A stretch of DNA of 64,000 nt from a phage. The notes below the pieces were generated by a model. The model made no database searches. It was not told the DNA's origin and saw only the letters and a program-made list of their open reading frames with translations. Location of the stretch: NCBI GenBank assembly GCA_026066175.1, contig GCA_026066175.1_4721.2, one strand, 5' to 3'. This document shows positions 2,121-62,118 of the stretch, in pieces. Numbering within the stretch: the stretch's first letter is position 1; every line of letters begins with the position of its first letter. A program made the position numbers and the translations under genes.

Positions 2121-4718
2121 TTATAACGTGACTGTACCTAATTTGGTTGTCTTATTGAGATTAATGACAGATATCTGGGTATCGCTGGTCGTGATGGTGC
2201 CAATATTAACGCGCTGTCCTTTATCATCCTCTTGCTTGTGGATGGTTAACTCCAGCTCTAACTGGTTACCGTTAGGAACAACGGAAACGTACCATGTTTT
2301 ATTACCCGGGAAGCTATTATAGTCTTTTAGGTTATAATGGCCTTTAGGTAAGGTCATGACCTTACCGGCAAACAAGCAAGTGATGTCTTCGTTGACGTAA
2401 ACGTCGAAACCGGAAGAAGCGATGACTGTTGAGGTCATTATTCGAGACGTAACCATATCAGTAATGTAGTCATCGATTGTGGTACCTATGACATTGAATA
2501 CTTGCCCACCGTTACCCATAATGGCCGACTCGCTAGTGTTTACGTAGCCGATACCCCAAGTCGGATGAATGTTCCAGCGGTACCCACTGTTTTGTAAATA
2601 TGTATACATGTCCTCATAGGCCGCATTCACCCAACTACCATCACTTTTTCGTCCAGCCCTAAATTGGAATGTGTTGCCATTTCCAGATGTCCCTCGGCCA
2701 AGCGGGACATGTCCCGCTACTAACCAACCATCCGTACTTTGCATATATGCGAACGAACCGTACGCTCTGTTATCAGCCCAAATATTCACGGTATCAACAC
2801 GCTCAACGTAGGCGATTACCTTTTGTACGCCAGTTATAGCGATTGAACCCTTGCGTGCCGACACATTAACTTCTGCGATTACAACACCCATTTTACGCTG
2901 GCTGCCACTAAACCCCAATACAACCATTAAACACGGTGCGTTTGTTGCTTCAGGAGGGATTGTTATCGATTGTTTCCAGTCAGTGATTCCGTTGAGTTTT
3001 GTTCCAGTGTATGCGTTCCAGACGGTTTGTCCAGCCGATTTCAGATTCTGTTCAGAAATAGAAATGCTATCGCCCTCAGGGATTAACGTGTCGTAATTAA
3101 GACCGGTGTTACTGGATAGACGATTGTCATTTAAGTAAGATCCACTGAGTGTGACGTTATTGTTACGATATATTGTCAAGAATGGCGCAGCCAGAGCGTC
3201 TAATACCGTAAAGTTACTTGATGGCATGAAACCATAGACATCGATACCATTACCGCGATAATGGTAGTTTGTCCAACTACCTTGATAACTTACGGTACGC
3301 CCATCGTAGTGACCTTGTCCAGCGCTACTGCTAGACAACGTGTATATCTTGGTTGCTGATAGAAATGCGAGATACCCATGAGCCGCCAAAGCTCCAACAA
3401 CCCTGTCTTTTATCTTTAACCAAGCTGAAGTATATAACGTACTGTCGGGATTCATTTTGGCTATTTCATCGTAAGCTGTGCCTGCGAAGTTTCCGATAGT
3501 GTACGTACGTATATCCGGCTGTCCGTTATTGTCGTTCTGTACAGCAATTACTTGCCCAGAATCATTGATATCGATATTACCGATACAGTTGTGAGCCCCC
3601 CACACCCAATATCCATCTTTATAATTGGATTCTCCTTGTGTGAATGTTGATGGTCCTCGCCACGCGATGCCGTTCGATTCGGCGTAGTAGGTCGCTTGCC
3701 CCGATCCGGGATTCATGGCGTATTTGTTATTGGTTGGGTCAAAATCGATGTAAAAATGATGCATTCCTTGACGTTGATGATTGTTCTGATCATTTGTCCA
3801 CCACGATGAACCGACCAGAATTCGCGCTTTACCATTTTTTACAGTGGACCATAAACGTATTGCAGCGCGCCAGATGATTTGACCGATCCCGTTAGACGGG
3901 AAACTATTCGCACTTATACGGTTACAGACTATGAGTTCGCTGCTATTGTTTACTTGAGTCCCTTCAATTGTAACACCGTTTATGTTAGTGATCAGTGTTG
4001 CCGATACACTACCCCCTGTAGGGGCGATAGAGGAACGTTGAACGGTGTAAATTTTTAGTGATAATTTATAGCCGTCCCTAACAGCAATCCCAATGTAAAT
4101 AGTCCCGTTAATTTCCCAACAACAAACATCGGGCATCGTTTCTTTGAAATCGGATAAAGCACCATCGATATACATTGCAACGTGTTTACTGGCATCGAAT
4201 GTACCATCCGTTAACGCGATGAACATTTTGGCGTTATTACCGTTGATATCAGCCGCTAATCCGAGTAGTATGTTGTTCTGATGACAGTAGATGGCTTTAG
4301 GTGCTAGATCCAACATAGCCGGTTGGTACTGTCGGCTTGTCGGTATTACGCTAGTAACTGCACCATTTTGATCCGTTTTACAAATAACGTAATATACGCC
4401 ATGTATGATGCTGTTTGTCGCCGACCTTAGTAGGACAATCGTCCCGTCAGATTCACGACATATACCGTAATGACGATAGTCGGTGATTAAGCCGATAGCA
4501 CCATCAGCAGAGCCTTCAATTGCCAGAGGAAAATAACTTTGGTCCCCAACCTGTTCGATATCGGTTACGTCGATATCGATGTATTTTTCCATCTCAGTGT
4601 TGAACTCAGCGGTACTGTAGGCACCGAGATCGCTCGCCTTTAGTCCCGTTGGGTTGTCGCGACTGGCGATACGCGTAGTAACGCTACTCACCAGTTCGCT
4701 GAACTTTTTCATTGCCAT
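2121..4718 (-). CDS. large tail fibre/tailspike-like protein (putative receptor-binding protein)
   Basis: 865-aa ORF inside the fibre cassette. N-terminus (SELVSSVTTRIASRDNPTGLKASDLG) carries the same RDNPxxVTxAQ-type motif as the neighbouring fibre genes, followed by a large non-repetitive domain. SD gaggtg 5 nt upstream of ATG. Confidence 0.55.
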   Translation of the reverse strand: MAMKKFSELVSSVTTRIASRDNPTGLKASDLGAYSTAEFNTEMEKYIDIDVTDIEQVGDQSYFPLAIEGSADGAIGLITDYRHYGICRESDGTIVLLRSATNSIIHGVYYVICKTDQNGAVTSVIPTSRQYQPAMLDLAPKAIYCHQNNILLGLAADINGNNAKMFIALTDGTFDASKHVAMYIDGALSDFKETMPDVCCWEINGTIYIGIAVRDGYKLSLKIYTVQRSSIAPTGGSVSATLITNINGVTIEGTQVNNSSELIVCNRISANSFPSNGIGQIIWRAAIRLWSTVKNGKARILVGSSWWTNDQNNHQRQGMHHFYIDFDPTNNKYAMNPGSGQATYYAESNGIAWRGPSTFTQGESNYKDGYWVWGAHNCIGNIDINDSGQVIAVQNDNNGQPDIRTYTIGNFAGTAYDEIAKMNPDSTLYTSAWLKIKDRVVGALAAHGYLAFLSATKIYTLSSSSAGQGHYDGRTVSYQGSWTNYHYRGNGIDVYGFMPSSNFTVLDALAAPFLTIYRNNNVTLSGSYLNDNRLSSNTGLNYDTLIPEGDSISISEQNLKSAGQTVWNAYTGTKLNGITDWKQSITIPPEATNAPCLMVVLGFSGSQRKMGVVIAEVNVSARKGSIAITGVQKVIAYVERVDTVNIWADNRAYGSFAYMQSTDGWLVAGHVPLGRGTSGNGNTFQFRAGRKSDGSWVNAAYEDMYTYLQNSGYRWNIHPTWGIGYVNTSESAIMGNGGQVFNVIGTTIDDYITDMVTSRIMTSTVIASSGFDVYVNEDITCLFAGKVMTLPKGHYNLKDYNSFPGNKTWYVSVVPNGNQLELELTIHKQEDDKGQRVNIGTITTSDTQISVINLNKTTKLGTVTL

Positions 4719-9338: not shown

Positions 9339-9370
9339 CCCTCCTCCAACCCGTAAGGGAAGGAGGAGGG
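9339..9370. terminator. conserved GNRA-capped hairpin element, copy 1 (bidirectional terminator candidate)
   Basis: ccctcctcc-aa-ccc-gtaa-ggg-aa-ggaggaggg with cataa/catatg flanks, between convergent genes (stops at 9323 and 9380). Confidence 0.6.
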
Positions 9371-18451: not shown

Positions 18452-18485
18452 CCTTCTCCCCAACCCGGAAGGGAAGGGGAGAAGG
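18452..18485. terminator. conserved GNRA-capped hairpin element, copy 2
   Basis: ccttctcccc-aa-ccc-ggaa-ggg-aa-ggggagaagg between convergent stops (18416 and 18503); preceded on the plus strand by an A12 run (18426-18437), which is a U-tract for the minus-strand transcript. Confidence 0.65.
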
Positions 18486-18778: not shown

Positions 18779-18798
18779 AGGGGTTTCCTTATCAACCA

Positions 18799-18820
18799 GG
18801 GTATTGCGTTAACAATACCC
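18799..18820. terminator. hairpin gggtattg-cgttaa-caataccc between genes (terminator or operator candidate)
   Basis: 8-bp perfect inverted repeat centred on a gttaac palindrome, 9 nt downstream of the stop of 18829..21420. Confidence 0.35.
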
Positions 18821-18828
18821 ATCGTCAA

Positions 18829-21420
18829 TTACTGTTCGTCGCGTTCCAACAGGTACTCGGAAGCCGTAACACCGTTTACAGTACGGATGGCTTTCAGACG
18901 TGTATCATCGTTCAGAATCACGGTAACAGACTGCAGACCTTTTACCTTGGTTTCGAAGGTTTTGAATACCTGGTCTAACATACGTGCGATGCTTGGGTTG
19001 GTGGCAGCTGATGCGTGGGTATACCCACTCTGATTAAGTTTCAGAATCTTCGCGTTGGTTGGTACACGAACGATAACATGCGGACGCATAGCGAACACGC
19101 TGTGGTTGAACCAGTACGCATCCGGGCTGTCTTCATCGGTCACGAGGTCTGGATGGGTCTGCATATCTTCAGCTGCAGCATCCGCCAAACGACGTTCGAT
19201 TTCGTCAGCATCCAGAGAACCATCTTTCTCCAGCTCAGCACGATACTCATCCATGATTGCCGCGCGACGCTCTTGATTTGCGACCATCTTATCATGAGCC
19301 GCATTCAGGTAATCGTTCATGCTGTAAAGCTCTGCCATGGAAAGACGGATGTTCCACTGACCAACACCGTCACGATTGCAGTAGAGGCATTTCAACATAT
19401 TGCCCCAGGTGTGATAGCAACGGGTGAACTCGTCTTCGATGAACTTCTGATCCATTTTAAGTTCGTTGATCAGCCAGCTATACAGCTCACCGACATCATC
19501 TACGAAGCTTGCAATGGTGGTTTCAGAGAAGTTCTTAGGTACAACACGCTTGATCCATTTGTTGATGTCTTTGGTCATGCTGTCGTTCAGGAAATGCCAG
19601 ATACGCAGAGGGATAACCTCTCTGTGTTGTTGCATGACCTGACGATAGGCTGACACACCTTCAATATGACCTTTATCAATAGACAGGGCATCCAGGAATT
19701 CCTGGATAGCATCAAGCTGTTTATCGGTGTAGGTTCCCAGGTAGGAATTGACTGTGGTCAGGAACGCCAAAGCATCGTTCTGGTTGACGTCGGTATTGGT
19801 CTGCTGGATGATCGCAACCGTCGCTTTGGTTTCAGCGTCTTCGATGCTGGATGCCGGAACCATGTCAGTGACAGTGAACAGTTTCATCTCACGCTGTTCG
19901 CCAACAACAATCGGTTCACGTCTAACCGGTTTGTTCAGGCTAACACGCACAACTTCTGCTTGCGCGATACGATCCCATTCTGCCATTTCCAGCTCCGCCA
20001 TACGACGTGCGGTTGGATCTGTTTCAAGTTGAATGTATTCCATTTCTTCCACCGTAAGTGAGGTAATATCAACAATGGTTTCATGAAGAATTCCGTTTTC
20101 GTCAATGCGAGCGCGACGAGCGAATTGCCTGAAGTCATACGCGGTTGGCCAACGGCTATCAGGCGCGTAGTCTTTGGCCTTCAGACGCATTTGCATGAAT
20201 TCTTCATGGTGAACAACACGACCGTATTGCTTCGCATCTTCGGTCGCATCAAGAGGGTCAACCGTTTTGGTTACCGTCGCAGGACGTACGCTACGTACCG
20301 GCTCAGGTTTTACCTTCACGGTTTCAGGTTGAGTAGGTGCTTTCTGCTCAGCCTTAACATGCCATTTCGGTTCTTCGTACTGCTCAGCGAATTGCTCAGC
20401 TACCGCAAAGATATCGTTGATGCCGCCAATATCTCCATCCGGATGGGTTGAGTAAATACGCGTTTGTGGTGCTTCCTGACGCGTTGCTGCTGGAGCAGGT
20501 TTATCGTCAACTGGGTCATCATCACCAACATCGTACAAACGGTTGAACGCACACTCCTTCGAATCCATATACGAAGGTGCTTGCTGCTGAACAACCGTTG
20601 GTCGAGGTTGTGTGCCGTATCCTGGCATTGTCGGAGCCATACCACGCATAACCGCTGGATTAGGTTGGTACTGCGGCTGAGGATAAGCTCCACCGTACGT
20701 GTTATACACAGGTTGTTGAGGTTGACCGTATCCGGCGTTGACCATCGCGTTTGCTTGCGGTCCGCGATAGGTCATTCCCAACTGCGTTACCTGCGCTTTT
20801 AACGCACGTGTCTTCTGCGCGATTTGATTCAGAGTCCCACCTTGATTCAGTTGTGTATACTTATTCGCTGCTTCCGGGTTAATGCGCGTTAATTCCTTTG
20901 CACGATAATACTCAGGATATTGATTGGCCTCAAAGAGCCACTGTACAAGATGCATAAGTATCGTTGTACGTACCGCGGTGTCGATAATCTGATCGACTGA
21001 TGCATTCTGAGGCGCTGGGTTGATATAAGAGAATACGTTCCAGCAGCAGTCCTCAACAAGTGACTCCATCGCCTCGTTGTTATTGGCGTAACGTGCCACG
21101 AACTGTGTTTGAATATCGTCTTGCTGAGCATGCTCTTTCAGGACATTAAAGATAGCCTGACGGATTTTGACGATATTTCCTTCGTTGGTGATGAACTGGT
21201 AGTTCTGCTGATATGCTGGATTAGGTTGGTATTGCGGTGGTTGTTGGTAACCGCCCCCGTATTGTGGATAAGCCGGTTGCTGGGGTTGGTACGGAGGTTG
21301 TTGATATTGCGGTTGCTGGTACTGTTGTTGACGCACCTGGTCAGCTGCAAATCGAACCGTGCTTGCGTACGGGTTCTCGCTATAGCCCATTTGTTGGTAT
21401 ATGTTGTTACCGTTATACAT
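18829..21420 (-). CDS. hypothetical protein with two Q/Y/P-rich low-complexity (prion-like) segments
   Basis: 863-aa ORF; residues ~28-75 (QQYQQPQYQQPPYQPQQPAYPQYGGGYQQPPQYQPNPAYQQNYQ) and ~225-270 (GYGQPQQPVYNTYGGAYPQPQYQPNP...); SD aaaagga upstream. Confidence 0.7.
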   Translation of the reverse strand: MYNGNNIYQQMGYSENPYASTVRFAADQVRQQQYQQPQYQQPPYQPQQPAYPQYGGGYQQPPQYQPNPAYQQNYQFITNEGNIVKIRQAIFNVLKEHAQQDDIQTQFVARYANNNEAMESLVEDCCWNVFSYINPAPQNASVDQIIDTAVRTTILMHLVQWLFEANQYPEYYRAKELTRINPEAANKYTQLNQGGTLNQIAQKTRALKAQVTQLGMTYRGPQANAMVNAGYGQPQQPVYNTYGGAYPQPQYQPNPAVMRGMAPTMPGYGTQPRPTVVQQQAPSYMDSKECAFNRLYDVGDDDPVDDKPAPAATRQEAPQTRIYSTHPDGDIGGINDIFAVAEQFAEQYEEPKWHVKAEQKAPTQPETVKVKPEPVRSVRPATVTKTVDPLDATEDAKQYGRVVHHEEFMQMRLKAKDYAPDSRWPTAYDFRQFARRARIDENGILHETIVDITSLTVEEMEYIQLETDPTARRMAELEMAEWDRIAQAEVVRVSLNKPVRREPIVVGEQREMKLFTVTDMVPASSIEDAETKATVAIIQQTNTDVNQNDALAFLTTVNSYLGTYTDKQLDAIQEFLDALSIDKGHIEGVSAYRQVMQQHREVIPLRIWHFLNDSMTKDINKWIKRVVPKNFSETTIASFVDDVGELYSWLINELKMDQKFIEDEFTRCYHTWGNMLKCLYCNRDGVGQWNIRLSMAELYSMNDYLNAAHDKMVANQERRAAIMDEYRAELEKDGSLDADEIERRLADAAAEDMQTHPDLVTDEDSPDAYWFNHSVFAMRPHVIVRVPTNAKILKLNQSGYTHASAATNPSIARMLDQVFKTFETKVKGLQSVTVILNDDTRLKAIRTVNGVTASEYLLERDEQ

Positions 21421-24673: not shown

Positions 24674-24885
24674 TGATTATCCTCCCTCAAACAGACAACA
24701 TACATGCATAATGCACGTCCCTTTTCTTGTTATCATCACAACGACAGTCGACGGTTTCAGCATCATTCTTAGCGCGAGAACGACCTTACGTGTTGTCTAT
24801 GCCTTTTTTCATTGAAGGCTTCTGTCACCTAGGTAATGTAAGCGTCAAATTTTTTCTAATCTAACCCAGCATAACAGCATAATAA

Positions 24886-24915
24886 CCTCCCTCAGCCCGT
24901 AAGGACCGAGGGAGG
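24886..24915. terminator. degenerate copy (3) of the conserved hairpin element, downstream of the capsid-candidate gene
   Basis: cctccctc-agcccgtaaggacc-gagggagg with cataataa and ttatg flanks, inside the 340-bp non-coding stretch after the stop at 25015. Confidence 0.5.
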
Positions 24916-25014
24916 TTGACTTATGTATCACGGTGCCGGATGAATGTCCGGTGTAATGAAACCATCCGCAACGTTGTTTTCAAGAACTTCATCCAACGAA
25001 GCAGCTCCGGTATT

Positions 25015-29682: not shown

Positions 29683-29714
29683 CCCTCCTCCAACCCGGAA
29701 GGGAAGGAGGAGGG
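29683..29714. terminator. conserved GNRA-capped hairpin element, copy 4
   Basis: ccctcctcc-aa-ccc-ggaa-ggg-aa-ggaggaggg between convergent stops (29657 and 29732); an A10 run lies upstream on the plus strand. Confidence 0.65.
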
Positions 29715-31099: not shown

Positions 31100-31174
31100 C
31101 GTATTTACCTTTTTATGTTAGGTGGGTTGCGGATGGAAGAATCAATGCATAGTCTGATTTAAGTTTGTTAAGAC

Positions 31175-32008
31175 TTACTTAGCTTTCGGATTATACGGAC
31201 TAACATGTTGTTGCATTCGTTGGATTGTTTCGTAGTACGGGTTATAATGAGTGAACATATTGTTGTATGGATGGTAGCCGTAAAGCGCATTTTGCCTTGC
31301 CGGTGAGAAACCTTTTTGAGAAGGACGATTTGAATTTACTGCGAGCACGTAGTAAACCAAATTTTGATGGTCGAATGTTCCTTCGTTTTTGAAGGTGTCA
31401 GCATAGGCGCTTACCGCAGGAGCAAGTCTATCACCATCGGTTGTAATGATCGTACCATCCGGGTAAACTTCTCGAACGATACACCATGTTCCGATGAGAA
31501 CATCTTCGGGTGTCTTATTACTGTATCCGACTGTAACGGTAAGGTAAGTATCGAATCCTCCTGAGCGCTGCGGATGTCGATAAATTGGGCCAGTCGTTTC
31601 TGCTTTATCGGTTACGGTTTTTTCGTAAGGACACTTCTTGATTGCTTTGATGTAAATATCGGGAATCTCTAATACCGCCTTATCAGGATGAATTCTAAAA
31701 TGATTCTTGAGTAAGCCCAAAAGGTTGGTTGCTACCACGTCGTGAGGTAGTACCCAATAACTGGTAGGGGAGTCATCGCCGTCTCTCTTGGAGAAGATGA
31801 CTGCCTTGTTATCGTCGTCTGGTAGACTGAAGAAAACGATTGACTCAATAGGCATAGCCAGCTCACCACAACAGGGGTCAGCGGATAACACCCAATTGTA
31901 TTTGTTGTCCGTTTCGTATAAATGTTCTGTTCTGTCGATACTACGATCCTTCAATTGGATGTAGCGTTCACGTTGTTTCTTGGTTAATTTACGGTAGATA
32001 GTGGTCAT
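31175..32008 (-). CDS. hypothetical protein, paralogue family B
   Basis: 277-aa ORF with SD aaggag; shares the N-terminal MT(D/T)(I/V)Y(R/T)KL and the PIY(R/V)HP...YPDG(T/R)I motifs with 32094..32867. Confidence 0.65.
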   Translation of the reverse strand: MTTIYRKLTKKQRERYIQLKDRSIDRTEHLYETDNKYNWVLSADPCCGELAMPIESIVFFSLPDDDNKAVIFSKRDGDDSPTSYWVLPHDVVATNLLGLLKNHFRIHPDKAVLEIPDIYIKAIKKCPYEKTVTDKAETTGPIYRHPQRSGGFDTYLTVTVGYSNKTPEDVLIGTWCIVREVYPDGTIITTDGDRLAPAVSAYADTFKNEGTFDHQNLVYYVLAVNSNRPSQKGFSPARQNALYGYHPYNNMFTHYNPYYETIQRMQQHVSPYNPKAK

Positions 32009-32093
32009 GTTAAGCTCCTTGATTACGGTAAGGATGATTTCGGTTTTGTGATGATGGTAGGACCACTTTGTTTAGGATCCTACCAGTACGGGA

Positions 32094-32867
32094 TTATTCA
32101 TGATCAGTGTAGAAATGGTGAGGATAGCCGGAGTACGATCCTGCGTTACCGGCTATGGATTCTTTCTGGGAATCGACGACGAGCGCGTAGAACTGTCGGG
32201 AATTTGTTAACGTTGAGAAATAAGAGGAAAGGACTTTTTCGTTCAACGCATCGCACGGTAGACAGGTACGCCCACAGAACGTCGTAATACGGCCATCCGG
32301 ATAGATCTCACGGATCATACGCCATTCACCGATATCAACCGGCGATGGCGCTGCTACACCACCTGTTATCGTTAAATAACGATCATACGTGGTATGACAT
32401 TCTGGATGTACGTAAATTGGCTTATTGGCCTCAACTTCTTCAGGAGCATAGCGTCGACCGAGAAGTTCAATAACCTCCAGATAGATTGTAGGCAGATCGC
32501 AAAGAACCCCTTCCTCTTTACGTTTCTTCGTGATTCGAGGACGAACCTCATTGATAACGTAGGCGAGTTCATTCAGCGCTTCTTGCGCTGGTAGCACGAA
32601 TAAACGGTCCGGTTTGTCGGACAAGTCTTCATTTACGTAAACGTAACAAACATCGTCTTTAGGCGCGTAGAAGAAGCGAGAGACCTTAAAGGTTTCCGTA
32701 GTACGATAACCGAGACGCGTTTGGTCCTGCACCAGAGAAAATATCCAGCGACGTCCTTCGTCCTGTTCAATGATATCATTGAACATCTTTGTTTGATCAG
32801 GAAGTTGATATTCTTCCTGTAATTTAGCAAGTGCTTCATTATCCAGTTTGGTGTAAACATCAGTCAT
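32094..32867 (-). CDS. hypothetical protein, paralogue family B
   Basis: 257-aa ORF; related to the 31175..32008 product over its full length. Confidence 0.65.
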   Translation of the reverse strand: MTDVYTKLDNEALAKLQEEYQLPDQTKMFNDIIEQDEGRRWIFSLVQDQTRLGYRTTETFKVSRFFYAPKDDVCYVYVNEDLSDKPDRLFVLPAQEALNELAYVINEVRPRITKKRKEEGVLCDLPTIYLEVIELLGRRYAPEEVEANKPIYVHPECHTTYDRYLTITGGVAAPSPVDIGEWRMIREIYPDGRITTFCGRTCLPCDALNEKVLSSYFSTLTNSRQFYALVVDSQKESIAGNAGSYSGYPHHFYTDHE

Positions 32868-32894
32868 GATAGTATCCTCGATTAGTAAGGTTGG

Positions 32895-33299
32895 CTAGTC
32901 TATCTTAAGCCAGATTGATGGTAAATGGAAATAGACACCGTCGTCTATTTGTTTTTGTGTTAACGGGGTTGGAAGTTTAGTGATGATGTTGTCGATCGAT
33001 TCCTCAATGTCACTTGTTAGAACGTCGATGTGGTAATAGCGAGCGATGCGTCCGTTACGTTCTAGCCAAAACAGACGAACGAAATCACTATTTTTATTAA
33101 TCGCATTCATAAACACGATTTGATGAAGCAGGATCATTCTTGACGAGGGGTAATCGTCAGGACGCGGAGTCATCACCAGTTCCCAACGTTTCCGTCGCAC
33201 GCCTTTTTTGAATTGACTCGTTACATTTGAACCACTTTTACCTAAGTTTATAACAAATTGCTTTAGACGATACGGTGTGTTTCTGTAAATATCGGTCAT
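32895..33299 (-). CDS. hypothetical protein, paralogue family B (N-terminal-domain-only member)
   Basis: 134-aa ORF; N-terminus MTDIYRNTPYRLKQF and C-terminal ...HLPSIWLKID align with the first ~130 aa of the two longer paralogues and stop at the LP(S/T/D)IY(L/I)K domain boundary. Confidence 0.55.
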   Translation of the reverse strand: MTDIYRNTPYRLKQFVINLGKSGSNVTSQFKKGVRRKRWELVMTPRPDDYPSSRMILLHQIVFMNAINKNSDFVRLFWLERNGRIARYYHIDVLTSDIEESIDNIITKLPTPLTQKQIDDGVYFHLPSIWLKID

Positions 33300-33383
33300 T
33301 GATTATAGCTCCAGGTTATTATCACTAAGGTAATATAGTCGTGAAATAAACTGGAGTAATAGAAATAATAAGACGGCATAAGA

Positions 33384-44626: not shown

Positions 44627-44658
44627 CCCTCCTCCTTCCCTTCCGGGTTGGAGGAGGG
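44627..44658. terminator. conserved GNRA-capped hairpin element, copy 6 (canonical sequence on the minus strand)
   Basis: Plus strand reads ccctcctcc-tt-ccc-ttcc-ggg-tt-ggaggaggg, the reverse complement of the canonical element; 8 nt downstream of the stop of 44666..45958. Confidence 0.6.
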
Positions 44659-47335: not shown

Positions 47336-47367
47336 CCCTCTCCCAACCCGGAAGGGAAGGGAGAGGG
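47336..47367. terminator. conserved GNRA-capped hairpin element, copy 7
   Basis: gcataaga-ccctctccc-aa-ccc-ggaa-ggg-aa-gggagaggg-aatatg, 23 nt downstream of the stop of 47390..48721. Confidence 0.6.
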
Positions 47368-55616: not shown

Positions 55617-55648
55617 CCCTCCTCCAACCCGTAAGGGAAGGAGGAGGG
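55617..55648. terminator. conserved GNRA-capped hairpin element, copy 8
   Basis: acataa-ccctcctcc-aa-ccc-gtaa-ggg-aa-ggaggaggg-aatatg between convergent stops (55596 and 55658); identical to copy 1 over ~40 nt. Confidence 0.6.
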
Positions 55649-55657
55649 AATATGCTG

Positions 55658-58600
55658 TTATCTTACGTTATTGCTATTCTGCTGTTCACTGAACCAACCA
55701 TAGACTTTGAGATCGGTACCGTATCTCAGTGCAAGGTATGCGTTCATCGCAGCACAGAACAACGTCGCGTAGTGCCATAAGAGCTCAACATCCATGTCAT
55801 CGGGAGTCTTGGTAAAACCAGCACCTGGTACAAAGCGTGACGGTTCATGCATGAACGTGCGGTACCAGTCGTGCTGTTGTTGTTTCGTCGTGAAATCACG
55901 GTGTGGTTCTAACGCTTCTCTTGCAAGACGACGATACTCGAGAAGATGGTGATTAGCCCGATTATTGCGAGGGTAACTGACTTCGTAGTTAGGATCGACA
56001 GCTTGGCATAGCGCTGTTGAGTCTAATAACTCGATGGCTTTGACTAACTTATCGCTCGCGTTGGTGATGAGCGCCGATCTGTAATACTCGATCGAATTAG
56101 CAAGTTGCGAATAGAAGTCATCTAAGGCATCTGGATTTGATACCTGCAGATCAAGACCTAATGTCCACGGATAGCTGCTTTCATCATTGAGTTGCGGTAC
56201 GACACCCAGGAGATGTTGGCAGATAGCTGCGTGATTATTGAACTGATCGTGGAAAATAGCTCGTGCAACTTCAATCGCATGATGATAACTCAAACGCCGT
56301 TCCTGACGTGTCGTCCTAAATGAGTTAACGGCGAGCAGTCCCGCGGTAGCCGCGCAAACATCAGTGTCGTTGACGTTGTTAAGCACATAGTTACTAAGCT
56401 GGAAAGATTCTTGCTTCAACGTTCCATTGGTCGCCGTTGCTTCGCTATTCGCTTTATCAACGATGGTGCTTAGCGCGTTAATATAACGTTTAGCGCGAAC
56501 TTCCAACCACTGTGCGATCCCAAGCACATCCACAGCCGCTTTAGCAAGGTCACGTGCGTTCACGATTTCGTTCTTCAATGCACCCAGCCCTTTATTTTCA
56601 GGTGAGGAGGCTTGTTGTCGAATCATGCTGTTCAACATGGTAAGCAGGTTATCCAGCTCGTGTCCGCTGACCTTGTTACGTGCGTCAGTAATCGGCCCTT
56701 GCAGGAATTTACGACAACCGTCATTATACCGAATCAGTTTATCCACGTCGATGGATTCGTTCGCGGTTTCCTTGAACTGATTCTTTAATTCTTCACGGTA
56801 GTCGTGTATCTCGCTTGTAAGATTATCAACGGTGATACCATTGTGACCAAGAAGAACTTTACTGAAGTTGCCCTTCTCGAACGCCAGTGCGATGCCTTCA
56901 CGAATCTTAGCCAGCTTATCCTGATCTAACTCACGACCGTTTGACAGTTCTTTCACTTCAGCGCTGATTATTGCTGCAACTGTTCCAAGGTTATCGGTAA
57001 CCCCTTTGAACGTGCTTGACCAAACACTTCCCGCTTCAGCGTATTTTGCGATGGTCTGGATACCGACGCTATGTAGCGACGCTAAACGTTTCTTCGTACC
57101 TTCGGTAAGCAATGCATCTTTAGCTCGCGTAAGTTGACTGTTATTGGCTTCCGCTTGCTGGATGGCCGCTTTCGCATTCCCGTTACGCCAGCTCTTAACC
57201 AACCAATCGACTAAACGTTTCAGGATATTGATGGTATATTCCATCGTACGTCGTAACGTTTCCCACGCGCTTTCAGCGGTATAGATCCCACCAACAGTGT
57301 ACCCTTCCATCTTCAGCGCTTTGGTATCGGTTTGACGTGCCAACCATTCTACCGTCGCAGAACAAACGTTTACGAACGCCTCCAGGTAGTTGTAATAGGC
57401 CTCTGTTGCGGAGGTTTCGTTGAGCTTGGAATGCAGATAAAACTGTTCGTATAGCTCGTCGTCATCACCGAAGGCGTCGTAGTTCCACAGTTCGGTATCG
57501 CAGCCGGTACCACAGAAGACATCCGCCGTTGTAAACTCCTTAAGTGCTTTCGTTGCGTCGTTGGTCAGGAATTTACCTGTCTCAAGTACGTCGTCAACAT
57601 TAAGTCTCGGGAGTTCGTCAGTAATTGGGTTTTCCAGCATCAACGTATTGAAGAACACGCTGTACTTGTATCCAAGCCATTTTGGATAACTGTTTTCAGA
57701 TATCGTAGACGCCGGTTTGATTTTCTTGGCTTCAGCCAACGTGTCTTCTGCAACCTGATATTGGTTTTCCCCAGCTTTGATACGTCGTAATGCTTTTTCT
57801 TCCAACTGTTTGAGTTTGGTGTGCCGTGCTTGAGCTGGAGCCTCAACCAGTTTTTGTACCGACCGCATGGCGGAAATCGCTTCTTTCAATGTGGTGATCG
57901 GCATACGAACTTTACCGTCATCGAAACTCAGCGCGCGAGCAATACGTCGACTTACAACAGGTTCGGTATGGATGTTTCTTTCTACCCACGATTTGTTTGC
58001 GTAGGTTTGCGTGATTTGCTGCTGGATCTTTTCAAGATAGCCCCAGCTTTTGGATGCTTTGCCGTCCAAAAGCGGATTAGGTCCTTTCTTATCAAAAAGC
58101 TTTTTGATAGGATCAAAGAAACCTTCTTGCACGAGATCGATACGGGTGTAACCATCAGCTGCTTCGATTTCTTCTTGGGTTTTATCCCAGAAGTCGTCGC
58201 TCTTTGCAGCAACCGCTGTATCTTTAATGTCCAGGATGATCTGACCCACCGTTTGCGCAAACAGCAAGGCCGCACGTACCGATTGTGCGAACATCCGCTG
58301 ATATTTGATTCGAACGCATTGCATCTGGGTTAGCAGATTCAGTTGCGCGATCCCATCCAAGGTGCTATCTTGAGCAAGTCCTTCAGCCTTAGCGATAACC
58401 TGTTTTACACGTTCAGCGACATCAACGTATTGCTGGCATACATCCCGCAGAATACGTGCTGCGAAGACCCCGGTACCGATATAGTTCAACAGGTCTTTTA
58501 ATGACCATTCAGACGGACAATCGGCTGGTGCGGTAGGGAGTAAGCAACCATCACCGTCCATGAATCGCTCTAATGCGCTAATATCCTGATTTTCTACGCT

Positions 58601-59263
58601 CATGGGGATATCGACATCAGCCGCTTGCAGATCCAGCATCTGTTGTAGGATGTTGGTGTCGGCTTGTACGAGCGTTGCAAGCGCTCGGCTGTGTGAGATT
58701 ATTGGTAACGCTGGTGACCATACTGCAGCAAGCTTGTCGGCGTGACGTTGAATGGCATACCCCATATCCTCGATCACATCGGGATGCTCGATAACCCCCT
58801 GAAGCGTTTGATGCAGCTCACCGAGTTGCTGAGACAGATCGACCATCATGGTGTTGAAGGTTTCGCCATCCTCTTTGTGGTTGTCCAGACGCTCGAGTTC
58901 ATGTTGCAGCAATGCGACGAGCTGTCCGTTGCCTTCTTGCTTCAGCTTGCTTTCCATTAATGTAATGGCTTTATCGACGATCTGACGCGCTTCACGAAAA
59001 CCGGTTGTGGAAGGAAGCTCTGTCCATAACGCCAGCGGTTTACCGTCAAGGGCTTCCGGCATCGATAACGAAAGCATAGTCAGTTGTTGGCGTGATACTT
59101 GCTGTTCACGGTGTAATGTTTCTTTTAACGCCAGGAGATCGTCAAGAAACGCGCCGTTAAGGGCGGTCGTACGCGGTGTTGAATTAATACCGTCAGTTAA
59201 TGATTCAAGCACCAGGAGACCGTTATCAGCTGAAGAGAGTCCCGCGGCAAGATATTTGTTCAT
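55658..59263 (-). CDS. very large, mostly alpha-helical hypothetical virion protein (start revised)
   Basis: ~1201-aa ORF; the ATG at 59263 (MNKYLAAGL...) has SD ggag with an 8-nt spacer. The track start at 59320 would translate through a perfect 12-bp-stem hairpin (59279-59309) and gives a P/G-rich leader. Confidence 0.6.
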   Translation of the reverse strand: MNKYLAAGLSSADNGLLVLESLTDGINSTPRTTALNGAFLDDLLALKETLHREQQVSRQQLTMLSLSMPEALDGKPLALWTELPSTTGFREARQIVDKAITLMESKLKQEGNGQLVALLQHELERLDNHKEDGETFNTMMVDLSQQLGELHQTLQGVIEHPDVIEDMGYAIQRHADKLAAVWSPALPIISHSRALATLVQADTNILQQMLDLQAADVDIPMSVENQDISALERFMDGDGCLLPTAPADCPSEWSLKDLLNYIGTGVFAARILRDVCQQYVDVAERVKQVIAKAEGLAQDSTLDGIAQLNLLTQMQCVRIKYQRMFAQSVRAALLFAQTVGQIILDIKDTAVAAKSDDFWDKTQEEIEAADGYTRIDLVQEGFFDPIKKLFDKKGPNPLLDGKASKSWGYLEKIQQQITQTYANKSWVERNIHTEPVVSRRIARALSFDDGKVRMPITTLKEAISAMRSVQKLVEAPAQARHTKLKQLEEKALRRIKAGENQYQVAEDTLAEAKKIKPASTISENSYPKWLGYKYSVFFNTLMLENPITDELPRLNVDDVLETGKFLTNDATKALKEFTTADVFCGTGCDTELWNYDAFGDDDELYEQFYLHSKLNETSATEAYYNYLEAFVNVCSATVEWLARQTDTKALKMEGYTVGGIYTAESAWETLRRTMEYTINILKRLVDWLVKSWRNGNAKAAIQQAEANNSQLTRAKDALLTEGTKKRLASLHSVGIQTIAKYAEAGSVWSSTFKGVTDNLGTVAAIISAEVKELSNGRELDQDKLAKIREGIALAFEKGNFSKVLLGHNGITVDNLTSEIHDYREELKNQFKETANESIDVDKLIRYNDGCRKFLQGPITDARNKVSGHELDNLLTMLNSMIRQQASSPENKGLGALKNEIVNARDLAKAAVDVLGIAQWLEVRAKRYINALSTIVDKANSEATATNGTLKQESFQLSNYVLNNVNDTDVCAATAGLLAVNSFRTTRQERRLSYHHAIEVARAIFHDQFNNHAAICQHLLGVVPQLNDESSYPWTLGLDLQVSNPDALDDFYSQLANSIEYYRSALITNASDKLVKAIELLDSTALCQAVDPNYEVSYPRNNRANHHLLEYRRLAREALEPHRDFTTKQQQHDWYRTFMHEPSRFVPGAGFTKTPDDMDVELLWHYATLFCAAMNAYLALRYGTDLKVYGWFSEQQNSNNVR

Positions 59264-59278
59264 AAAACACTCCGTTGG

Positions 59279-59309
59279 CCTAGGGGAAGGCTGAAAACCT
59301 TCCCCTAGG
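59279..59309 (-). promoter_or_regulatory. perfect 12-bp-stem hairpin cctaggggaagg-ctgaaaa-ccttcccctagg between two large genes
   Basis: Exact 12-bp inverted repeat with a 7-nt loop, 13 nt after the stop of 59323..62118 and 15 nt before the ATG at 59263; the SD lies 4 nt downstream of the stem. Confidence 0.55.
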
Positions 59310-59322
59310 GTTATAAACACAA

Positions 59323-62118
59323 TTAAGCTAATTTACCGAAACCGGCTTTCTGCAGTTTCTCGTTGATGATTTTCGCTTCAGCGAAGACGTAATCGCGGTA
59401 GGCGGTCACTAACGCATCCACGCGTGAACGCAAGGCTTCTTCGAAGCTATACCAGGCGGCGATTTCACGAATCTGCACGCTGATATAATCAACGGTTGAG
59501 CGAAGCTCGGTTGCGTTTTCTTGCGGGATGGCTTTCACTTGGCGAGCAACATCGCTTAAACGGCGGAACTGTGTTTCGATTTCTTTAAACTTACTGTCGG
59601 CAAGTTTGCTGAATTCGTCACCAGAACGGGTAAATAACAGATAGCTGTTGCCGTCAAGTGCGGTCGCTAACTGCTGAAGTACGTTGGTGTCCGGATACAC
59701 AGGAGTACCGCTTTGCAGTACTTTCTCACCGAATTCCGCGAAGTCCTTCGGTGGTAAGTGTGCAGACGTTGTCAATTCGTTGAAACGGAAAGTCAGCGAA
59801 TTATCATACAGCATCCGGTACGCTTCCATACCCTGTTTCATGGTACCGGCCAGGTTAGCCAGACGCGGAGCAATCTCGCCTTCTTTAGCGCGTTTCTGGT
59901 CTTCTAACGCCCCTTCGAGTTCTTTACACTGGTCGTTCAGATACACGATACGATCAGGACGTAGACGACGCATCTCACGAAGAATAGTATCCAGCTTACC
60001 TTCCTGGAAATAACCCAACGTTAAAGACGTACACGCTTGCTGAAGACGATCGAACACCGGTAAGGTTACCATCTCCTTACGGATACCATCAACAATCGCA
60101 GAAACAGCCGAAAGTTTCTGTTCTGTAGTCAATGGAACATCAGAGGCCGACTTGCTGGGTGCACCAACAACGTTACGCATTGCGTCGGTATCCTCGGTTT
60201 TATCAACCTCTTTACGAACATGCTCATCAGGAACATAAACGTTCGCGTTACGTTTCGCCTGCTTGATGGCGTCGTTGGCCGCTTTTTCGGTGGCCGCTAC
60301 GCTATCGGCACGTTTCTTCAAGAGTTCAATAATCCAGAGCAACAGACGACGAATCGCAGTGTAGGCTGTCGTGATGATGACACCGATAACAGCCATCTTC
60401 ATGATACCGAACGATTCCATGGTCGGCTCTAACGCTTGGTCTGGCATATACCGTTCACGCAGCTCCAGATAGATCTGCTCATCTGGTTTGCTGACCTCAC
60501 CACGATGCGAAGTCCGATAAATGGCTTCGTCAATCTCAACAAGATCTTTGCGTGCCTGACGGTCAGATTCTGTTAGGTAAGCACAACCGGATACGTCGTC
60601 TTCGAAGCTTAAGAATTTGAAAAAGTCACTGACGTCGATCTTGATCTTCTTCGCTTCATTATCGACATCGATAACATCTTTTTTCTGTGCCTGATATTCC
60701 GCTTTGATGTCGTTCACCGGCTTCAACGCACGTTCTTTTAATACCTGCACGATCTGTTTCCAGTCGGCGTCACGCTCAAGAACAAGGAAGTAATTCTTGA
60801 GTTCAAAAGCACGGTAACGCGCAACGAGTTGTTCTACCTGAATATGAGCGAGTTGCACATCCATCAGCCAACGCGACATTGCTGAGATCAAACGGCTATA
60901 AGCAAGCAATGTCTGATATGTTAGCTTCATGTGCTTTTCGTACAGCTCAATATCGCCGTCTTGAATATCAGCCGTTGGGTTCATTTCCTTCGTTGCTTTG
61001 AAGATCTGTTCGGCCTCATTTAACGTTTGTTCGAATTTGACTTCATTAAACGTGTCAAACGGTTCAGCCAACTCCATCATTCGATCGTGAAGCTCACGAA
61101 CCCAGGCTTCCTTATTGTTGCGAATAGCTGCGTCATCGTGAAGTTCAGTTTGATGTTTCTGTACCCATTCTTCGACGATATCAGCGGCGGCAACAATTCC
61201 TGTACCATCGGAAACTAACGGAACAACTCCAGCAAGTACGCCTACACACGCCGGGGTTTTCCAATAATCGTTCAAAGCGTTTCTGAATTCAACGATGGAT
61301 TGTACGTTTGGTACCGTATCCAAAAACGTACTGCCGTTACGGCTCATTGTCGTTACGATATCAGCGAATTCCTTCTGCTTAGCGGTAACAAAAGGAACCA
61401 GGACCATAAGCCATTCAGCAACCGACTTCGCTTTCTCTTTCAGATTTTTGTCAGCGATTTCCTTAAGGTTTATCGCACCACCGTAACCTGCAAGCTCTTT
61501 ATATACGTCGCTAAGGGTCATCTGTTTATCCAACATTTCTTTGAAACGTGGGTAATCAGCACCTAACGCATCGACAATATCGTTGATTACGTCATCAGTT
61601 GTTGCGATAAACTTCTTCGTATCAACGTTTGAATATTTCCAGACGTATCGTACTGCTTTCTTGATTCCTGCAAAGATAAACGCCCAGATACGCTTGATGA
61701 GTTCCCAGACTTTCTTCGCGCCATCGACAAACAGTTTAGAGACCTTGGCAACGAATCCTTCCTGCACCAATTCAACGCCGTTACGTGATGGGATTTCCGT
61801 GAAGAAAGCATCCGGCAGTTGTTTCGGGAATGCGTCACCAAGACGCATACGCAGTTCCGGTACATCAGCACGAGAAATACCGCGTGTTACTAATTGTTCG
61901 TGAAGACGAACGTTTTCTTCACCAGAGGTCACGAATTCGTCAACATCGAAGGAGACCATTGTTTCCTGATCTTCGGTGGTAACGACGCTTGAACCATCAC
62001 TGGTTTGGATGTCTTCGTCAGGGAATGCCATGAGCATACCGTGACGCATTTCAACCACCCCGTAATCGGTTGCTAAACCGAATTCGTTGTGGTCTGGGGT
62101 AATAACTGGGATACTCAT
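59323..62118 (-). CDS. large hypothetical virion protein with internal hydrophobic segment
   Basis: 931-aa ORF with ATGA overlap to the upstream gene; hydrophobic stretch MKMAVIGVIITTAYTAIRRLLLWIIELL; predicted largely helical. Confidence 0.6.
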   Translation of the reverse strand: MSIPVITPDHNEFGLATDYGVVEMRHGMLMAFPDEDIQTSDGSSVVTTEDQETMVSFDVDEFVTSGEENVRLHEQLVTRGISRADVPELRMRLGDAFPKQLPDAFFTEIPSRNGVELVQEGFVAKVSKLFVDGAKKVWELIKRIWAFIFAGIKKAVRYVWKYSNVDTKKFIATTDDVINDIVDALGADYPRFKEMLDKQMTLSDVYKELAGYGGAINLKEIADKNLKEKAKSVAEWLMVLVPFVTAKQKEFADIVTTMSRNGSTFLDTVPNVQSIVEFRNALNDYWKTPACVGVLAGVVPLVSDGTGIVAAADIVEEWVQKHQTELHDDAAIRNNKEAWVRELHDRMMELAEPFDTFNEVKFEQTLNEAEQIFKATKEMNPTADIQDGDIELYEKHMKLTYQTLLAYSRLISAMSRWLMDVQLAHIQVEQLVARYRAFELKNYFLVLERDADWKQIVQVLKERALKPVNDIKAEYQAQKKDVIDVDNEAKKIKIDVSDFFKFLSFEDDVSGCAYLTESDRQARKDLVEIDEAIYRTSHRGEVSKPDEQIYLELRERYMPDQALEPTMESFGIMKMAVIGVIITTAYTAIRRLLLWIIELLKKRADSVAATEKAANDAIKQAKRNANVYVPDEHVRKEVDKTEDTDAMRNVVGAPSKSASDVPLTTEQKLSAVSAIVDGIRKEMVTLPVFDRLQQACTSLTLGYFQEGKLDTILREMRRLRPDRIVYLNDQCKELEGALEDQKRAKEGEIAPRLANLAGTMKQGMEAYRMLYDNSLTFRFNELTTSAHLPPKDFAEFGEKVLQSGTPVYPDTNVLQQLATALDGNSYLLFTRSGDEFSKLADSKFKEIETQFRRLSDVARQVKAIPQENATELRSTVDYISVQIREIAAWYSFEEALRSRVDALVTAYRDYVFAEAKIINEKLQKAGFGKLA

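Follow-up and report, generated by a model that had tools for sequence, protein, structure and literature searches.

Intercistronic stem-loops that stabilise mRNA are exemplified by the REP elements of the E. coli malEFG operon and by stem-loops in phage polycistronic mRNAs, and unequal expression within one operon by means of an intercistronic hairpin would, by analogy with such cases, follow a classical scheme. Processing sites form a second group of hairpins found between co-transcribed genes; the usual substrates of E. coli RNase III span about two helical turns (~20 bp or more), and sites of the T7 type often contain an internal loop.

For the nucleus-forming phages, hairpin terminators have been described. 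The 3′ ends mapped in phiKZ by ONT-cappable-seq share the motif BCCYCCCC..GGGRRGG followed by BYTTATKYYGT (PMC10914365), and a strongly similar terminator motif was obtained with the same technique in 201phi2-1 (PMC11512511). At late promoters of phiKZ the core used by the non-virion RNA polymerase is TATG, and transcription begins at its G (PMC4666361). Termination and the fate of mRNA under the phage RNA polymerases of chimalliviruses are poorly understood.

The window analysed here, a stretch of 64,000 nucleotides, comes from a Goslar-like E. coli jumbo phage, with an identity to Goslar of 96.5% locally and ~87% over the whole window. The original prediction described a perfect hairpin with a 12-bp stem at the junction of two large genes, and all 12 of the 12 stem positions were indeed found to be complementary. 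The Shine-Dalgarno (SD) sequence had been placed 4 nt from the stem; the actual distance is 5 nt, a trivial discrepancy. The features of the junction are as follows.

59323..62118, minus strand: upstream gene, homologue of Goslar gp65 (open reading frame list and PDB sequence match; 85% amino acid identity to Goslar)
59325-59323, minus strand: stop codon TAA of the upstream gene, in mRNA-strand reading
59264..59322, minus strand: untranslated intercistronic spacer of 59 nt (in-frame loop stops in 6 of 10 relatives)
directly after TAA and before the 5′ arm, minus strand: spacer stretch TTGTGTTTATAAC
59311..59319, minus strand: weak candidate pairing, UGUUUAUAA just 5′ of the hairpin, complementary to UUAUGAACA (59265-59257, start codon within)
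59298..59309, minus strand: 5′ arm of the stem, CCTAGGGGAAGG (100% pairing in all genomes, two pairs altered on both sides)
59291..59297, minus strand: 7-nt loop, TTTTCAG on the mRNA strand (exact reverse complement CTGAAAA in Goslar and three other relatives)
59279..59290, minus strand: 3′ arm of the stem, CCTTCCCCTAGG
minus strand: CCAAC between the 3′ arm and the SD, and TGTTTT between the SD and ATG
59270..59273, minus strand: SD GGAG of the gp64 homologue, 5 nt past the stem and 6 nt ahead of the ATG
59263-59261, minus strand: start codon ATG of the gp64 homologue
55658..59263, minus strand: downstream gene, homologue of Goslar gp64 (1201 amino acids here, 930 in Goslar)
55617..55648: canonical family terminator hairpin CCCTCCTCC..GGAGGAGGG with CATA/TATG flanks, at the convergent end of gp64 and common to gp63, closing the transcription unit

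Against PDB sequences, the product of 59323..62118 matched ‘PVC Protein gp65’ (11fg, E = 0); its C-terminus is conserved at 97-99%, and a tblastn search of the deposited-phage collection gave no sequence relatives beyond Goslar. Goslar gp65 belongs to the vertex-binding complex on the inside of the capsid and is structurally homologous to phiKZ gp86 (10.64898/2026.04.21.720040); it is a stoichiometric capsid component. The downstream gp64 is an ORFan, mosaic and hypervariable. Its first ~1 kb exists as two alleles that are ~50% identical, an indel of ~800 nt (~57314-58110) is present in the window and in L005 and absent from Goslar and L007, and a third variable block lies near the 3′ end. Searches with gp64 in Pfam, PHROGs, NCBIfam and PDB sequences gave no match, and tblastn against deposited phages returned Goslar only, together with a weak central-domain match in three jumbo phages; amino acids 372-655 are similar to hypothetical proteins from jumbo phages of Erwinia, Klebsiella and Serratia. 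In the text of the preprint on Goslar virion structure, gp64 goes unmentioned (10.64898/2026.04.21.720040).

The inverted repeat at 59279-59309, with its 12/12 bp stem and 7-nt loop, is the sole perfect stem of at least 12 bp in the 64-kb window and hence the longest perfect one there. Stems of 12 bp arose in 2 of 60 dinucleotide-preserving shuffles (mean 0.05 per shuffle), and the stem 12-mer was found only at the two arm positions of the window, against 0.09 expected; in the genome the stem sequence is single-copy. The stem comprises 12 bp, or 14 when the U-A and U.G pairs available in one loop orientation are counted. With a folding energy of -25.3 kcal/mol, the hairpin is one of about six local folds that stand out as the strongest in the window, almost all of them intergenic, and its 101-nt context gave z = -3.0.

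The original prediction had also held that the hairpin is intergenic and masked by naive extension of the open reading frame, and this was borne out. The six-frame open reading frame 55658..59320 begins at a GTG and reads through the hairpin. However, in 6 of 10 genomes, those with one of the loop orientations, the loop contains a TGA or TAA in frame ahead of the ATG, and the type B junctions described below have no in-frame start codon upstream of the hairpin; the hairpin is therefore untranslated and gp64 starts at ATG 59263, its product beginning with Met-Asn-Lys-Tyr. The annotated start of Goslar gp64 is the same ATG, and the 25-nt block around the SD and ATG (CAACGGAGTGTTTTATGAACAAATA) is identical in 10/10 genomes. 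That the GTG at 59320 might instead start an N-terminal extension of gp64, with the hairpin translated, is scarcely credible: the frame is open in the window and three other genomes, but this GTG has no preceding SD, while the SD-ATG at 59273-59261 is perfectly conserved, and together with the loop stops and the type B junctions this leaves the translated reading effectively refuted as far as the compared sequences can tell. Judged on the same comparison, the six-frame extension is an artefact, and the start of a large phage gene is corrected.

Conservation was examined in a set comprising the window and nine further Goslar-like genomes from viral and metagenome collections, ten in total. The hairpin is present in 10/10, with its 5′ end always 46 nt before the gp64 ATG, and since it is conserved in nine further genomes at this constant distance from the ATG, it is beyond chance. 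Two forms of the junction were distinguished, type A (the window, Goslar, L008, L010 and L012) and type B (L005, L007, L009, L011 and L013). Type A has the stem GGGGAAGG/CCTTCCCC and the 59-nt spacer; type B has the stem GGTGGAGG/CCTCCACC and 22 extra nt, which form a second small hairpin just past the stop codon. Over the 24 stem positions the two types differ by two compensated pairs only (G:C to U:A and A:U to G:C), and stem pairing is 100% in every one of the ten genomes. This covariation comes from only two lineages, and in view of the template switching discussed below it is weaker evidence than usual.

The junction lies within two old alleles, which are 45-75% identical between about 200 nt upstream and 1050 nt downstream of the ATG; the flanks are 93-99% identical. 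The hairpin and the 25-nt SD/ATG block stand as conserved islands inside this diverged stretch. The distance from stem to SD is constant, whereas that from the stop codon to the hairpin varies (13 vs 35 nt). The additional 8-bp hairpin of type B, (A/G)TGCGTAC-N9-GTACG(C/T)GT, lies right past the gp65 stop codon (5203-5227 in L005, with equivalents in L007, L009, L011 and L013), and both of its substitutions preserve pairing only as G.U on the sense-strand RNA.

We compared the hairpin with the terminators of the phage itself. The window contains seven clear counterparts of the phiKZ terminator motif, of the form CCCTCCTCC-NN-CCC-NNNN-GGG-NN-GGAGGAGGG followed by N0-3 and TATG, mostly at convergent junctions and all flanked by CATA...TATG.

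9339-9370: terminator-family copy
18452-18485: terminator-family copy
24884-24917: terminator-family copy
29683-29714: terminator-family copy
44627-44658: terminator-family copy
47336-47367: terminator-family copy
55617-55648: terminator-family copy, the one that closes the gp64 transcription unit

The TATG after the family terminators is also the phiKZ non-virion RNA polymerase late-promoter core, and because it flanks every family copy, terminator and restart signals may overlap. At co-directional junctions of Goslar, most strong hairpins end in ..TTTATGCC. Among the strong intergenic hairpins of the window phage, the majority combine a pyrimidine-rich 5′ arm with a following TTATG, as in the mapped phiKZ terminators.

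The hairpin between gp65 and gp64 shares with phiKZ-like terminators its position in a chimallivirus genome, as a GC-rich, very stable hairpin few nt past a stop codon, but differs from them in three respects. The phiKZ-type arms are pyrimidine-rich on the 5′ side and purine-rich on the 3′ side, whereas the arms here, CCTA-GGGGAAGG and CCTTCCCC-TAGG, have the reversed polarity: on either strand it is the 5′ arm that contains the purine-rich core. In place of a TTAT(K) tail, or of TTATG, the sense strand continues CCAACGGAG, i.e. CCAAC-GGAG. The hairpin is also single-copy and not a repeated family. As for bacterial Rho-independent termination, the GC-rich hairpin is there but no T-run follows it, and a scan for E. 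coli-type promoters and terminators left the hairpin uncalled on either strand, with counts at shuffle level. The suggestion that it could act as a terminator is consequently not supported in the canonical sense, lacking as it does the T-run, the TTATG tail and the arm polarity of the family; by its sequence features the element is a conserved intercistronic stem-loop and not a canonical terminator.

Past the stem, the antisense strand reads GTTATAAA in type A and GTTGAAC in type B. A terminator acting on the plus strand, where G-TTAT-AAAC follows the stem, would draw on this type A TTAT, which phiKZ-type terminators bear at that place. Nonetheless, such a role is very unlikely, as the invariant family tail in this phage is TATG(CC) and not TTATA, type B has GTTGAAC instead, no promoter-like TATATTAC motif points that way inside gp64, and a canonical bidirectional terminator located 3.6 kb earlier already closes the plus-strand genes.

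Several other identities were considered. An RNase III processing site, also raised in the original prediction, is unlikely because the stem has only 12-14 bp; the resemblance to T7-type sites lies in its being a hairpin between co-transcribed phage genes, but a perfect stem of this size falls far below the usual length. A stimulator of programmed -1 frameshifting was rejected, the hairpin lying past the stop codon and no X XXY YYZ heptamer being found. An Rfam search of the hairpin returned sub-threshold chance matches only, among them HIV_FS2 with 17 bits, where the gathering score is 44 (E = 1.4). The target hairpin of a diversity-generating retroelement was likewise dismissed, in view of the conserved gp65 C-terminus (97-99%) and with no reverse transcriptase annotated. 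The limits of the gp64 alleles, ~200 nt upstream and ~1050 nt downstream, do not coincide with the hairpin, so it was rejected as a recombination boundary. As a promoter, the AT-rich flank with CCTAGG resembles AAAAATTT-N5-TTAYATTACCTAGGTGA (upstream of chimallin and gp040), but the match is poor and the spacing wrong.

With regard to promoters elsewhere, the motif AAAAATTT-N5-TTAYATTACCT(A/T)(G/T)GTGA was noted upstream of chimallin (gp189), gp040 and gp175 (window 24811-24850, equivalent to Goslar 43254, and Goslar 172966 and 160806). The most enriched word upstream of Goslar genes is TATATTAC.

The genes gp67, gp66, gp65 and gp64 follow one another in this order and are co-directional. Within the spacer and the last 180 nt of gp65 the only TATG core is one that overlaps the gp64 start codon itself; because no TATG late-promoter core lies between gp65 and gp64, gp64 is most likely expressed through read-through of the gp67-gp65 transcript, the basis on which we infer co-transcription. 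The hairpin thus has the attributes of an intercistronic stabilising stem-loop, being stable, conserved, tail-less and placed between co-directional genes that are probably co-transcribed.

The explanation that we favour, tentatively and at a little less than an even chance, is an untranslated RNA stem-loop within a polycistronic late mRNA. This stem-loop would chiefly hinder 3′ exonucleases, besides serving as a pause site or partial stop, and would thereby make the expression of gp65 and gp64 unequal. One late mRNA would run through gp67, gp66, gp65, the hairpin and gp64 and end at the canonical terminator at 55617-55648. The RNA polymerase would pass the hairpin, perhaps pausing or partly stopping there, and once in the cytoplasm the very stable stem would block 3′-to-5′ exonucleases, so that the gp67/gp66/gp65 segment of the mRNA would outlive, or differ in amount from, the accessory gp64 segment. 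In such a scheme the stem would matter and the loop would not. Both its action as barrier or pause and the way in which it would shift gp65 relative to gp64 are putative and are proposed from sequence.

Several observations point in this direction. The stoichiometric capsid role of gp65, set against the absence of gp64 from the preprint text, suggests differing demand for the two products. The pairing of the small type B hairpin, preserved only as G.U, suggests a role for the sense-strand RNA. Approximately five other tail-less hairpins in Goslar would make this a recurring architecture. Like the REP/malEFG type of stem-loop, the hairpin is stable and tail-less, lies between co-directional genes whose products are needed in differing amounts, and is conserved in its stem alone; it differs in not being a repeated REP-type sequence, in that stabilisation is a predicted effect, and in its unusual setting, in which the mRNA is exported from the phage nucleus. 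An attenuator or translational regulator between co-transcribed genes, as also put forward in the original prediction, would be possible. On the other side, a perfect stem with compensated changes can arise without selection through template switching (PMC8794818, PMC8604942), RNA decay during infection by a nucleus-forming phage may not follow the E. coli textbook pattern, and the fixed distance to the SD combined with the variable distance to the stop codon is at least as compatible with a function that serves the downstream gene.

Such a role, in which the hairpin serves the ribosome-binding site of gp64 as an insulator, 5′ stabiliser or coupling device, is considerably less probable than not but has several points in its favour. 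The stem-SD distance (5 nt) and that to the ATG (-46) are invariant while the 22-nt indel falls on the stop-codon side, the 25-nt SD/ATG block shows 100% conservation although the segment around it has diverged, and other tail-less hairpins lie 8-15 nt ahead of start codons. The position of the indel is, however, statistically uninformative, given target sizes of 13 vs 5 nt. In one variant it would prevent the SD and AUG from pairing with distant parts of an mRNA that is not translated while it is being transcribed in the phage nucleus, and in a second it would shield the 5′ end left when an endonuclease cleaves the AU-rich stretch upstream. In a third, the 5′ flank of the hairpin and the start codon would form a weak helix, clamped by the hairpin and opened by the ribosome terminating on gp65. 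Complementarity of this kind is present in both types (UGUUUAUAA with UUAUGAACA in the window, UUGUUCA/UGAACAA in type B), and the helix forms in folds of 89-111 nt, but its pair probability is only ~0.2 when more context is folded, and in type B its 5′ strand lies 27-33 nt past the stop codon, outside the reach of the terminating ribosome. A start-codon-sequestering helix closed by the hairpin, seen in the short folds and not robust in larger contexts, was accordingly rejected.

Comparison of the loops separates the stem from the loop as the conserved component. Within type A the loop reads either TTTTCAG or CTGAAAA and within type B either TTATTGG or CCAATAA, in each case exact reverse complements. 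The two orientations are equally stable (-25.3 vs -26.0 kcal/mol), and point substitutions within either type were absent from the hairpin in all ten genomes. Because the closest pairs of genomes by flanking sequence have opposite orientations (window/L010, 98.1% identical; L011/L007, 94.6%; L013/L009, 93.2%), at least three independent inversions of the loop are required. A protein-binding translational operator of the MS2 coat or T4 gp43 type depends on specific conserved loop or bulge nucleotides, which are not found here; recognition specific to the loop, by a protein or as an operator, is disfavoured since the loop is reverse-complemented within both types. The loop sequence therefore appears not to be read specifically by anything, which argues for a function of the stem alone. 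In this sense the flips provide a free comparative test, the loop carrying neither coding nor sequence-specific information.

Small inversions of a similar kind are known in chloroplast spacers. When replication switches template between the arms of an inverted repeat, the spacer ends up inverted and the two arms homogenised (PMC8604942, PMC8794818), and the hairpin shows what this process predicts, a 7-nt loop exactly reverse-complemented between perfect 12-bp arms, recurrent and homoplasious, together with compensated stem changes. What the likeness describes is a mutational process and not a function. The literature searched gave no description of template-switch inversion in phage intergenic hairpins, and the repeated exact flips offer a clean natural case of it in a phage. 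Since template switching also yields compensated stem changes, such changes are not proof of selection for pairing, and the flips caution against taking them as such.

Taken to its end, this argument would make the hairpin a largely functionless, self-perpetuating palindrome, its arms kept complementary and its spacer flipped by template switching without selection. We consider this unlikely. At least three independent exact loop inversions with zero point substitutions within an allele class, arm homogenisation with spacer inversion as the known signature of template switching (PMC8604942, PMC8794818), and the flipping of the inner parts of two other hairpins between the window phage and Goslar all fit it well. 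Nevertheless, both allele classes keep the element at exactly the same position although the flanks are now only 45-75% identical between them and have gained indels, two CCTAGG sites are retained although CTAG is ~8-fold depleted in the genome, and the strong hairpins of the genome concentrate at gene junctions.

As to the other flipped hairpins, those at 44627-44658 and 24884-24917 of the window have the inner stem and tetraloop reverse-complemented relative to Goslar. Altogether, 3 of ~14 intergenic hairpins are flipped between the window phage and Goslar (~87% identical).

The symmetry of the element and its indifference to loop orientation would equally suit a palindrome acting in DNA, either as the site of a dimeric protein (two CCTAGG half-sites 25 bp apart) or as a hairpin or cruciform for replication or recombination near the hypervariable gp64. 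The retention of the two CCTAGG sites against the ~8-fold depletion of CTAG, the intergenic position of 5/7 CCTAGG sites in Goslar, the pairing of the arms in DNA that the loop flips imply at some stage, and the SbcC-like and RuvC-like proteins encoded by Goslar are all in keeping with this. A DNA-level role is still distinctly improbable: the hairpin occurs once in the genome and is not located at a promoter, an unrelated promoter-like motif accounts for two of the other CCTAGG sites, the divergent gp64 alleles have their boundaries away from the hairpin, and a 12-bp stem counts as short for cruciform extrusion.

Returning to the favoured stem-loop in a late mRNA, the hairpin would mark a control point internal to an operon, lying between the genes of a stoichiometric capsid component and of an accessory protein that is hypervariable. 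Intercistronic RNA hairpins are a known kind of element, of which this one is a new case that carries no annotation. In Goslar, about five further tail-less hairpins at junctions of co-directional genes end 8-15 nt ahead of a start codon (e.g. 191781-191809, 110086-110156 and 222176-222224). It is conceivable, but a long shot, that these and the present hairpin form a distinct functional class of nucleus-forming phages, serving as mRNA landmarks for export, for the loading of RNA-binding proteins or for internal translation initiation, with their loop DNA flipping far above the rate of point mutation.

Tail-less hairpins directly ahead of an SD at co-directional junctions were also seen at 9781-9809 of L018 (equivalent to Goslar 191781-191809) and at 18791-18829 of the window. 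The hairpin at the gp214-to-gp213 junction of Goslar varies only at loop positions 1 and 3 (CCG, TCG, TCA) over 121 nt in three genomes.

Among bacterial genomes, an identical stem was found in a multi-copy Pedobacter repeat and rejected as a relative of the hairpin, independent matches being at about chance level in 596 Gb. This repeat (L022-L040; P. westerhofensis, P. cryoconitis and P. hartonius) is frequently located at contig ends and has the stem CCTAGGTGGAGG-N7-CCTCCACCTAGG as part of a larger inverted repeat; probably it is a mobile or repeat element with no relation to the hairpin, and the match is due to chance.

Elsewhere in the window, ~2.1 kb at 31158-33319 with three open reading frames (277, 257 and 134 amino acids; no Pfam match) replaces ~140 nt of Goslar. 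Positions 2432-3549, inside a large gene of the tail-fibre region, showed no DNA-level alignment to Goslar. In the same region, two internal segments of ~213 nt (710-922 and 1260-1473) cross-match as repeats.
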